A stretch of DNA of 61,166 bases from a phage: sequence record PZ386952.1. One strand, written 5' to 3'. A program made the translations under genes and the position numbers. The number at the start of each line of letters is the position of its first letter. Positions within the stretch are counted from its first letter, which is position 1. Positions 56,347 through 58,829 of the stretch are shown one piece after another. The notes below the pieces were generated by a model. It made no database searches. It worked only from the letters and a program-made list of their open reading frames with translations, and was not told the origin of the DNA.

Positions 56347-56739
56347 ATGCTATTAGTTGTCACCGGAGGTCGAGATTTTAAACATGTAGAGTATATTTAT
56401 GCTCAACTGGATAAGTTGCATATGCAAAGAAGGATAACCACACTTCGCCACGGTGACGCTGACGGTGTTGACCGCATTTGCGCACATTGGGCAGAGCGCA
56501 ACGGTATTAAGACAGAAGCGTTCCCTGCCCCGTGGGACAATCTTTCCTTACCAAATACCAAGATACGGTATAACGCCAAAGGTGCTTATAATGCACAAGC
56601 TGGCGCTTACCGCAATCAATTAATGTTGGATACTGATCCTAAACCAGATCACGCTATTGTGTTTCCTGGCGGAGCTGGTACTATGGATATGTACAGAAGG
56701 ATTAAAGCATCCGGTATTCCTTACACTTTAGCGGAGTAA
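56347..56739 (+). CDS. SLOG-family (DUF2493-like) protein
   Basis: VVTGGRDF ... HGDADGVDR ... FPGGAGT Rossmann-like glycine motifs. Confidence 0.45.
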   Translation: MLLVVTGGRDFKHVEYIYAQLDKLHMQRRITTLRHGDADGVDRICAHWAERNGIKTEAFPAPWDNLSLPNTKIRYNAKGAYNAQAGAYRNQLMLDTDPKPDHAIVFPGGAGTMDMYRRIKASGIPYTLAE

Positions 56740-56742
56740 ATA

Positions 56743-57213
56743 ATGGCTGACGTTAAAACTATTGTTGATGCAATGGACGAATCCAAAGAGTGCCAACTGA
56801 AGAAGTCGTTTGAAGTAAAACAGGTTACAGAGACGCAGTTGATAGCCAACTTTGCGCGTTATTGCGGATTGGGGCGCGGGAAAGACTGGAACGGGCTTAT
56901 TGTTATGCCCACGTCACAGATCCTTGTCTATGTCCGTAATGTTGTAGAAGATCTTTTACGTCTTCAAATAGATATTGGTGACGTAGAAATTAACATGACC
57001 GCGAGCTCTACCATTGTGGTTAAATGGCAGTCGGGCGAGACACTTCGTTTGGAAGCGTGTCATTGTGCTAAAAGCTTGCACCACCTGCGCGGCTGTCATT
57101 ACCAGTTTGTTGGGTTTGTGCATCCGCAAGGGTTAAGCGAGCGTACGGCGCTGGTAGCGCGTTTGCTGCTGTGTCCTTATAATAACGAGCCAGAAGTTAT
57201 ATACGAGGCATAA
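56743..57213 (+). CDS. hypothetical protein
   Basis: 156-aa ORF. Confidence 0.4.
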   Translation: MADVKTIVDAMDESKECQLKKSFEVKQVTETQLIANFARYCGLGRGKDWNGLIVMPTSQILVYVRNVVEDLLRLQIDIGDVEINMTASSTIVVKWQSGETLRLEACHCAKSLHHLRGCHYQFVGFVHPQGLSERTALVARLLLCPYNNEPEVIYEA

Positions 57214-57214
57214 G

Positions 57215-57637
57215 ATGATTAAACACGTCAAGCAACCAACATTGAATACATGCGTTTCTGCGTGTTTGGCAATGATTCTTAATAGACCTGTAGAAGAAGT
57301 AATTGCGGAATTTCATGATCGATATTACAACAACTGGGAAATAACAATTTCCGAATATCTAGTACAAAACAATGTTGACCACATCTGTTCTGTAGGCGGT
57401 GGGCGTGAAACTATATACATGGGAGGTTTGTTTTTGTGCACTGTCCCAAGTCTGAATGTTCCTGGAGCACTGCATCAGGTTGTGATCGATACAACTAATC
57501 ATAAGTTTATTGTACATGACCCAATTAAAGGTTGGGAAGGTAAAAAGTTCTACGTTGGCCCGGATCAAGATCCTGAACAGCCAGGAGCATTCATCATTCA
57601 TACTTGGGTTAAAGACGTTGAGATTGTGCTTAATTAA
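57215..57637 (+). CDS. C39-like (papain-fold) cysteine peptidase domain protein
   Basis: VKQPTLNTCVSACLAMIL matches the Q...C..ACLAMIL catalytic-Cys signature of peptidase C39 domains; downstream His/Asp (IVHDP). Confidence 0.5.
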   Translation: MIKHVKQPTLNTCVSACLAMILNRPVEEVIAEFHDRYYNNWEITISEYLVQNNVDHICSVGGGRETIYMGGLFLCTVPSLNVPGALHQVVIDTTNHKFIVHDPIKGWEGKKFYVGPDQDPEQPGAFIIHTWVKDVEIVLN

Positions 57638-57699
57638 AACCCTTGCTATCAGATAACCCTTCATTGTATTGTGTACCCATCGAATAAGAGGGGTACACA

Positions 57700-57885
57700 A
57701 TGACCAAACTATACGCCGGATTGTTTTTATTTGCGACGTTAATGTTCGCTGGCCTTTATACCTATACAGTAGTTGAACAACCTTCCACGGTTATCCGAAT
57801 CTTTGCAAGTACAGGGCTTTGTATCTGTCTTATTCTATTTGTTTTATGCATTGTTATTATCCAAGACCAAAGGAAAATTAAATGA
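57700..57885 (+). CDS. small membrane protein
   Basis: 61 aa with two hydrophobic helices. Confidence 0.35.
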   Translation: MTKLYAGLFLFATLMFAGLYTYTVVEQPSTVIRIFASTGLCICLILFVLCIVIIQDQRKIK

Positions 57886-58352
57886 CTGAAGAATGGAAAA
57901 TGATTCCTTTATTTCCAAAATATGAGGTTTCCACTTTAGGTAGAGTTAGGAGAGTTAATAACCACAGACCTCTGTCCGGCTACATCTTGGAGGGACGTAG
58001 ACGTTATACTTTGCGTCATAACGGTAAGAAATACGGAGTTGATGCTGCAAGACTGATGTGTTACGCGTTTAGAGGACTTATTGAAGGTTACGAGAAACTA
58101 GATGCAAGACATCTTGACGGCAATCCGTTAAATAATGTGTTATCTAATGTGGATTGGGGTACGCGTAAAGACAATATGATAGACATGGTTCACCATGGTA
58201 ATGCTTGCCATTCTTTTACAAAGGAAGAAGTGCTAAGTATTAGGGAAAGAGCAGCTAATGGGGAGAGTCAAGCTTCTATCGCAAGAAGTATGGGCAGGTC
58301 TGTAGCTCTTATTAACTGTATTGTATTAAGAAAAACCTATAACGAATATTAA
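57882..58352 (+). CDS. HNH homing endonuclease (NUMOD4 + HNH)
   Basis: IPLFPKYEVSTLGRVRR (NUMOD4-like) and HLDGNPLNN...WGTRKDN (HNH motif). Confidence 0.7.
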   Translation: MTEEWKMIPLFPKYEVSTLGRVRRVNNHRPLSGYILEGRRRYTLRHNGKKYGVDAARLMCYAFRGLIEGYEKLDARHLDGNPLNNVLSNVDWGTRKDNMIDMVHHGNACHSFTKEEVLSIRERAANGESQASIARSMGRSVALINCIVLRKTYNEY

Positions 58353-58415: not shown

Positions 58416-58829
58416 ATGCGCGGGGAAGCTGTGACTGCTTATAAGAAAGTTCATAGCGTGAATGGACATCGTGGACGGTTTTTACTGGGCTTGTGCGGCC
58501 TTACAGCATTTACCGATCAGGTGTTGCGTTATTTTAATAGCGCGGAACCTGTTAAGTTTCCTGATATTAAACTTTATAGTAAAGATGATGATTACGGGCA
58601 AACTTGCGGTCTTGCGGTTACTCCGGAAGGTACTTGCCATTTTATTTATAATGATGGTACTTTGAGCGAGCCCATGCTGGATGGATGGGGATCTGAGGGT
58701 AGCGGTTGTGTGTTTGCCGCTGGCGCGTTGGCTGCTGGTGCAAGTGCGAGCGAAGCTATCGAGCTAGCAATCAAGCATACCACATGTGCATTTCTTGGCG
58801 TTGATACAATATCGTTTGAGGGTTTTTAA
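58416..58829 (+). CDS. hypothetical protein
   Basis: 137-aa ORF; start uncertain. Confidence 0.35.
   Translation: MRGEAVTAYKKVHSVNGHRGRFLLGLCGLTAFTDQVLRYFNSAEPVKFPDIKLYSKDDDYGQTCGLAVTPEGTCHFIYNDGTLSEPMLDGWGSEGSGCVFAAGALAAGASASEAIELAIKHTTCAFLGVDTISFEGF

Follow-up and report, generated by a model that had tools for sequence, protein, structure and literature searches.

A divergent, stand-alone branch of C39-like cysteine peptidases encoded by a Seuratvirus and by unrelated phages

Analysis of the phage genome PZ386952.1 (61,166 nt; this whole stretch is hereafter the window) reveals that the plus-strand gene at 57215..57637 encodes a divergent, stand-alone, phage-borne branch of C39-like peptidases. 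The phage is a CAjan/Seurat-like E. coli siphovirus (Queuovirinae, Seuratvirus) with a complete genome. The gene product is very probably an active C39-like peptidase, judging from its conserved predicted active site. We propose, with somewhat more confidence than doubt, that it is an active minimal C39-type endopeptidase that acts in trans on a host protein, at a Gly-Gly-type site, for takeover or counter-defence.

Predicted active site and fold of the C39-like protein

The gene has an ATG start and encodes 140 amino acids (aa), exactly as described in an earlier sequence-only reading of the window, and the catalytic domain starts almost at the protein N-terminus, with the conserved Gln at position 7. 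That reading had likened the N-terminal segment (residues 5–22, VKQPTLNTCVSACLAMIL) to the catalytic-Cys signature of C39 domains and had pointed to a candidate His and Asp downstream. The motif by itself is not statistically significant; it is marked as non-random by conservation of the key residues in 107/107 homologs, a profile-profile alignment, and the fold. In particular, an alignment of 107 family members, 28–62% identical to the query, contains only five invariant columns: Gln7, Cys13, His87, Asp102, and Pro103 (each 107/107). The first four are already invariant among close homologs alone, and their spacings in the full alignment are 5–6 (Gln-Cys), 70–79 (Cys-His), and 14–21 (His-Asp). 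Specifically, Gln7 (CAA, 57233..57235, +), 6 residues before Cys13, is the predicted oxyanion-hole residue; Cys13 (TGC, 57251..57253, +) is the predicted nucleophile; His87 (CAT, 57473..57475, +) is the predicted general base; and Asp102 (GAC, 57518–57520) is the predicted third member of the triad and forms an invariant "DP" motif with Pro103 (GAC CCA, 57518..57523, +). The downstream His and Asp expected from the earlier reading are thus present and invariant.

The same four residues coincide with the active site of canonical C39 domains. Comparison of the family, using hhalign, with a reference profile of 29 canonical LahT150-like C39 domains, all with PF03412, gives a probability of 88.3% (E 2.8e-6, 103 columns), in a register that places Q7, C13, H87, and D102 on Q21, C27, H101, and D117, all four of which are invariant in the C39 domains. 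The structural model has a papain-like fold that is nearest to solved C39 domains, with LahT150, ComA, and PCAT1 among its structural neighbours. Cys13 forms the N-terminal end of a helix (residues 13–22, DSSP of the model), and His87 starts a strand (residues 86–92), a placement consistent with a C39-type active site. Conservation, profile-level homology, and fold thus support the interpretation of the protein as a C39-like cysteine peptidase.

The invariant tetrad also bears on a second suggestion of the sequence-only reading, that the protein could be a non-catalytic binding module. The C39-like domain (CLD) of HlyB, which only binds a partner, would be the model for such a role. CLDs have lost the catalytic Cys, whereas the phage family retains Gln, Cys, His, and Asp in 107/107 sequences down to 28% identity, a pattern expected of an enzyme and not of a scaffold. 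Because the catalytic tetrad is what the family never changes, the alignment points to an enzyme, and we consider a pure binding role highly improbable.

Two further segments of the protein stand out. The most conserved non-catalytic block, Val77-Pro-Ser-Leu-Asn81 (57443..57457, +; 90–97% conserved per position in the 107 sequences), is located on strand 72–78 of the model, the strand preceding the His strand, and is a candidate substrate-binding surface. Gly61-Gly-Gly63 and Gly70-Gly71 (residues 61–71, 57395–57427) are located in the only lower-confidence loop of the model (predicted local distance difference test score of 78 for the block 61–70), and the GGG at 61–63 is conserved only in closer relatives (at least 56% identity). 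Since the StbD-CT toxin auto-processes (bioRxiv 10.64898/2026.05.07.723447), self-cleavage of the phage protein at its glycine loop is conceivable by analogy.

Inspection of the protein sequence reveals no signal peptide and no membrane segment or anchor, and because of this the protein should be cytoplasmic. A GAGG Shine-Dalgarno sequence, read from the sequence, is located 6 nt before the ATG (57205–57208, +). The TAA stop of the preceding 156-aa open reading frame (ORF) is located just 1 nt before the ATG (57211–57213, +), and the two genes are probably translationally coupled on account of this spacing. Promoter and terminator scans around the gene gave nothing above shuffled expectation, and we therefore assign no transcription unit or timing.

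Distribution and genomic context

A free-standing C39-like domain had been called unusual for a phage, but the family is common. In an exhaustive profile search, it comprises 929 representative clusters (50% identity), of which 595 have E <= 1e-10, and nearly all members are 135–160 aa long; tblastn located the family in 197 deposited phage genomes. The hosts of these genomes are Vibrio (53), Escherichia (46), Salmonella (34), and Pseudomonas (18), plus Erwinia, Klebsiella, and others, and the genomes include those of Seuratvirus, Nonagvirus, Ackermannviridae, V. cholerae podophages, and jumbo phages. Nearly every copy carries the label "hypothetical protein", and none is called a peptidase. 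The protein of the window belongs to phrog_4049, has 100% identical counterparts in phages CSP1C and phiG7, and is the ortholog of CAjan gp84, itself labelled "hypothetical protein"; the DNA of the region is 92–95% identical to SeppeHuegi, CSP1, phiG7, and CAjan.

The gene keeps no constant company. Across 80 viral contigs, which fall into 21 lineage groups, no neighbour gene is common to different groups, and no neighbourhood of a family gene contains an ABC transporter. The largest group (~37 IMG/VR contigs) matches Pseudomonas prophages, and the Pseudomonas lambdoid prophages have the order CI-like repressor, Rha, DnaT-domain protein, DnaC-like loader, C39-like gene, NinB, and NinG, so that the C39-like gene opens the nin accessory region. 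Because the gene occurs in unrelated phage types without constant partners, in surroundings of early or accessory genes, its product would act in trans, on a substrate encoded elsewhere.

Several observations on individual neighbourhoods can be added. In the ~37 IMG/VR contigs (L011–L055) and in Pseudomonas genomes (L082–L088), the family gene is always located between a DnaC/IstB-like helicase loader and NinB/NinG, and in the Pseudomonas lambdoid prophages a Cys-rich coiled-coil ORF of 157–173 aa is often directly upstream. A scan of genome contigs with a shallower alignment returned eight loci, seven from Pseudomonas and one from Methylophaga. An adjacent ORF of ~156–158 aa that recurs in several lineages was considered as a partner or immunity protein and rejected: all-against-all BLAST found these ORFs to be unrelated, and some are NinB.

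In the window, the gene belongs to a cluster of small plus-strand genes on the right-hand side, directly upstream of the lysis cassette. The description of this locus as an early-type region was overstated. The order (+) is YAcAr/SLOG protein, 156-aa unknown, C39-like protein, 61-aa membrane protein, HNH homing endonuclease, HslV-like protein, 86-aa unknown, and endolysin/holin/spanin. The YAcAr/YspA-type SLOG gene (56347–56739, +; PF10686, E 5e-18), the 156-aa gene (56743–57213, +; phrog_25149), which starts 3 nt after it, and the C39-like gene form a tightly packed trio; the phrog_25149 protein is limited to the Seuratvirus group.

One alternative is that the protein is a maturation protease, which would strip a leader or propeptide from a phage precursor such as a small membrane, lysis, or structural protein, much as C39 domains strip double-glycine leaders. 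Leader removal is the canonical C39 function (PF03412; LahT150, ComA, and PCAT1 being structural neighbours), and in this phage the gene is tightly packed with the 156-aa unknown, with the membrane-protein gene and lysis cassette downstream. However, no neighbour is conserved across the 21 groups, the ~156-aa neighbours are mutually non-homologous, and the sipho-, myo-, podo-, and jumbo phages that carry the family do not share related structural and lysis modules. The nin-region copies of the lambdoid prophages are located away from morphogenesis genes, and the 61-aa protein has no Gly-Gly leader. We consider a maturation role improbable and favour a substrate encoded elsewhere.

The remaining features of the cluster are located downstream. 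An RNA hairpin at 57667–57702 (+) of 12+2 bp (−20.1 kcal/mol, z = −3.5 versus shuffles) is located in the 62-nt gap 3′ of the C39-like gene and is followed by no T-run; it encloses the AAGAGGGG ribosome-binding site of the 61-aa membrane-protein gene, extends to the start codon of that gene (ATG, 57700), and may regulate its translation. The HNH homing endonuclease gene (57882–58352, +; 156 aa; NUMOD4 + HNH_3 + HTH_38), which separates the 61-aa gene from the HslV-like gene, resembles a mobile insertion, because CAjan has no HNH gene at the same position, gp85 leading directly into gp86. The HslV-like protein (58416–58829, +; 137 aa; phrog_1040 "peptidase HslV family", E 5e-22; no Pfam match) is a second putative protease in the cluster, found alongside the C39-like gene only in Queuovirinae-like phages.

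Proposed activity and its alternatives

We propose that the gene product is a minimal, single-domain clan-CA cysteine endopeptidase of the C39 type, in which Cys13 would act as nucleophile and His87 as general base, with Gln7 as the oxyanion-hole residue and Asp102 in the orienting role. Encoded by a solitary accessory gene and made in the cytoplasm of the infected cell, with no transporter, delivery domain, or dedicated partner gene, the peptidase would act in trans on a protein or peptide encoded elsewhere, most likely a host protein that is conserved across Gammaproteobacteria, would cut it at a small-residue (Gly-Gly-type) site, and would thereby serve host takeover or counter-defence. The specificity is argued by analogy: to our knowledge, all characterised C39 peptidases cut at a Gly-Gly motif, and on this basis we put a Gly-Gly-type specificity at an even chance. 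A host protein as the target, in takeover or counter-defence, is a tentative assignment that we rate just short of even.

Several results weigh against this proposal. The match of the protein to Pfam PF03412 (Peptidase_C39) scores 13.7 bits (E 0.058) over residues 3–24 only, relative to a gathering threshold of 22 bits; neither the single sequence nor either of two family profiles had a significant match among PDB sequences; and the Foldseek template-modelling scores to C39 domains are just ~0.5. A papain fold with a Cys-His-Asp triad is found in amidases, deamidases, transglutaminases, and acyltransferases as well. Fusions in longer family members are limited to a YunG-like domain and a sub-threshold zinc-ribbon match and are uninformative, and a PADLOC search returned no match and no tie of the family to a defence system.

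PF03412 matches 9/17 relatives weakly (best E 0.016), with 0/17 reaching the cutoff; PF13529 (Peptidase_C39_2) has no significant match, with 1/17 members at E = 1.6; and NCBIfam has no match for the protein. Alignments to LahT150 and PfhB2 from the PDB searches are weak and are taken as leads only. We do not class the protein as a member of PF03412, because it is below the Pfam threshold and has no transporter context. Some of the longer members may be gene-calling fusions, and the few longer members contain no delivery domains of the kind used in type VI secretion (T6SS) or contact-dependent inhibition (CDI).

In another alternative, the protein is a papain-fold enzyme but not a protein endopeptidase: it could be an amidase, isopeptidase, deamidase, transglutaminase, or acyl-transferase whose substrate is a small molecule, the stem of peptidoglycan, or a ubiquitin-like conjugate with an isopeptide link. 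We consider this improbable: the proteins that it matches best, by profile and by structure, are true endopeptidases, the protein has no signal peptide or membrane anchor with which to reach the cell wall, the phage has a separate endolysin, and outside Queuovirinae-like phages the gene does not keep its place near lysis genes.

What the C39-type endopeptidase would mean depends on its substrate. The copies in deposited phages, among them the therapy-relevant Kuttervirus and Seuratvirus/BASEL phages, are nearly all "hypothetical protein", and their recognition as a conserved free protease of the C39 type, to all appearances active, gives these genes a testable biochemical identity. Were a host or defence protein the one to be clipped, the enzyme would extend the host-takeover or anti-defence repertoire by a proteolytic mechanism and could provide a small, specific Gly-Gly protease as a tool; if it merely trims a phage protein, the result is an ordinary improvement in annotation. 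In its boldest form, the proposal is that of a widespread, trans-acting phage "clipping" protease that would disable one specific host protein by a cut at a Gly-Gly site, the target being either GyrB/ParE, as for the Cpe1 and StbD-CT toxins, or an antiphage-defence component or ubiquitin-like conjugate. We regard that form as unlikely; if true, it would define a new class of proteolytic takeover or anti-defence factor in Queuovirinae, Ackermannviridae, Vibrio cholerae podophages, and Pseudomonas lambdoid prophages.

Comparison with known C39 systems

The C39 link is not new at the level of annotation. A 143-aa Bacillus phage protein is already labelled "Peptidase C39 domain-containing" in BFVD, and Gendre et al. 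made an annotation-level C39 link earlier, with no functional work there. Stand-alone C39-like peptidases of the PF13529 type (PDB 3erv; Bacillus phage vB_BcoS-136) differ from the phage family, which has no significant PF13529 match, and, being likewise functionally uncharacterised, add no mechanism.

The C39 domains of PCAT/AMS exporters (PF03412; PCAT1, LahT150 6mpz, ComA-PEP 3k8u/5xe8) are close to the phage protein in fold and profile. In contrast to these domains, the phage protein is neither fused to nor beside an ABC transporter, is below the Pfam gathering threshold, is phage-encoded, and is predicted to be cytoplasmic. Moreover, the exporter domains have a Gly after the nucleophile ("CG"), whereas the phage family has C-V/T-S-A-C. 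The CLD of HlyB-type RTX exporters is a binding module without the catalytic Cys; the phage family keeps Cys13 and so is not a CLD.

A third comparison is with the interbacterial C39 peptidase toxins Cpe1, StbD-CT, EvpQ, and TsaP (PMC12136450; bioRxiv 10.64898/2026.05.07.723447; PDB 8ssm). Free C39 toxins kill bacteria by clipping GyrB and ParE, and the toxins named here travel with T6SS/CDI carriers, either as their C-terminal domains or as their cargo, and have a cognate immunity gene directly after them (PMC12136450; bioRxiv 10.64898/2026.05.07.723447). A search of the PDB with a C39 profile did not bring up the Cpe1/StbD sequences. Toxins of the Cpe1/StbD-CT type thus have a carrier and an immunity gene, whereas the phage gene has neither, its neighbours being phage genes. 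By analogy with Cpe1 and StbD-CT, the phage protein could be a topoisomerase-cleaving factor for host shutoff, which would cut the LHAGGKF ATP-lid loop of host GyrB/ParE and so stop chromosome replication and segregation in the lytic cycle. We rate this target low, because the phage family has no delivery domain or immunity gene and because gyrase cleavage would be harmful to most phages' own replication. GyrB/ParE clipping by the free C39 toxins supplies, at the same time, a concrete first experiment for the phage enzyme.
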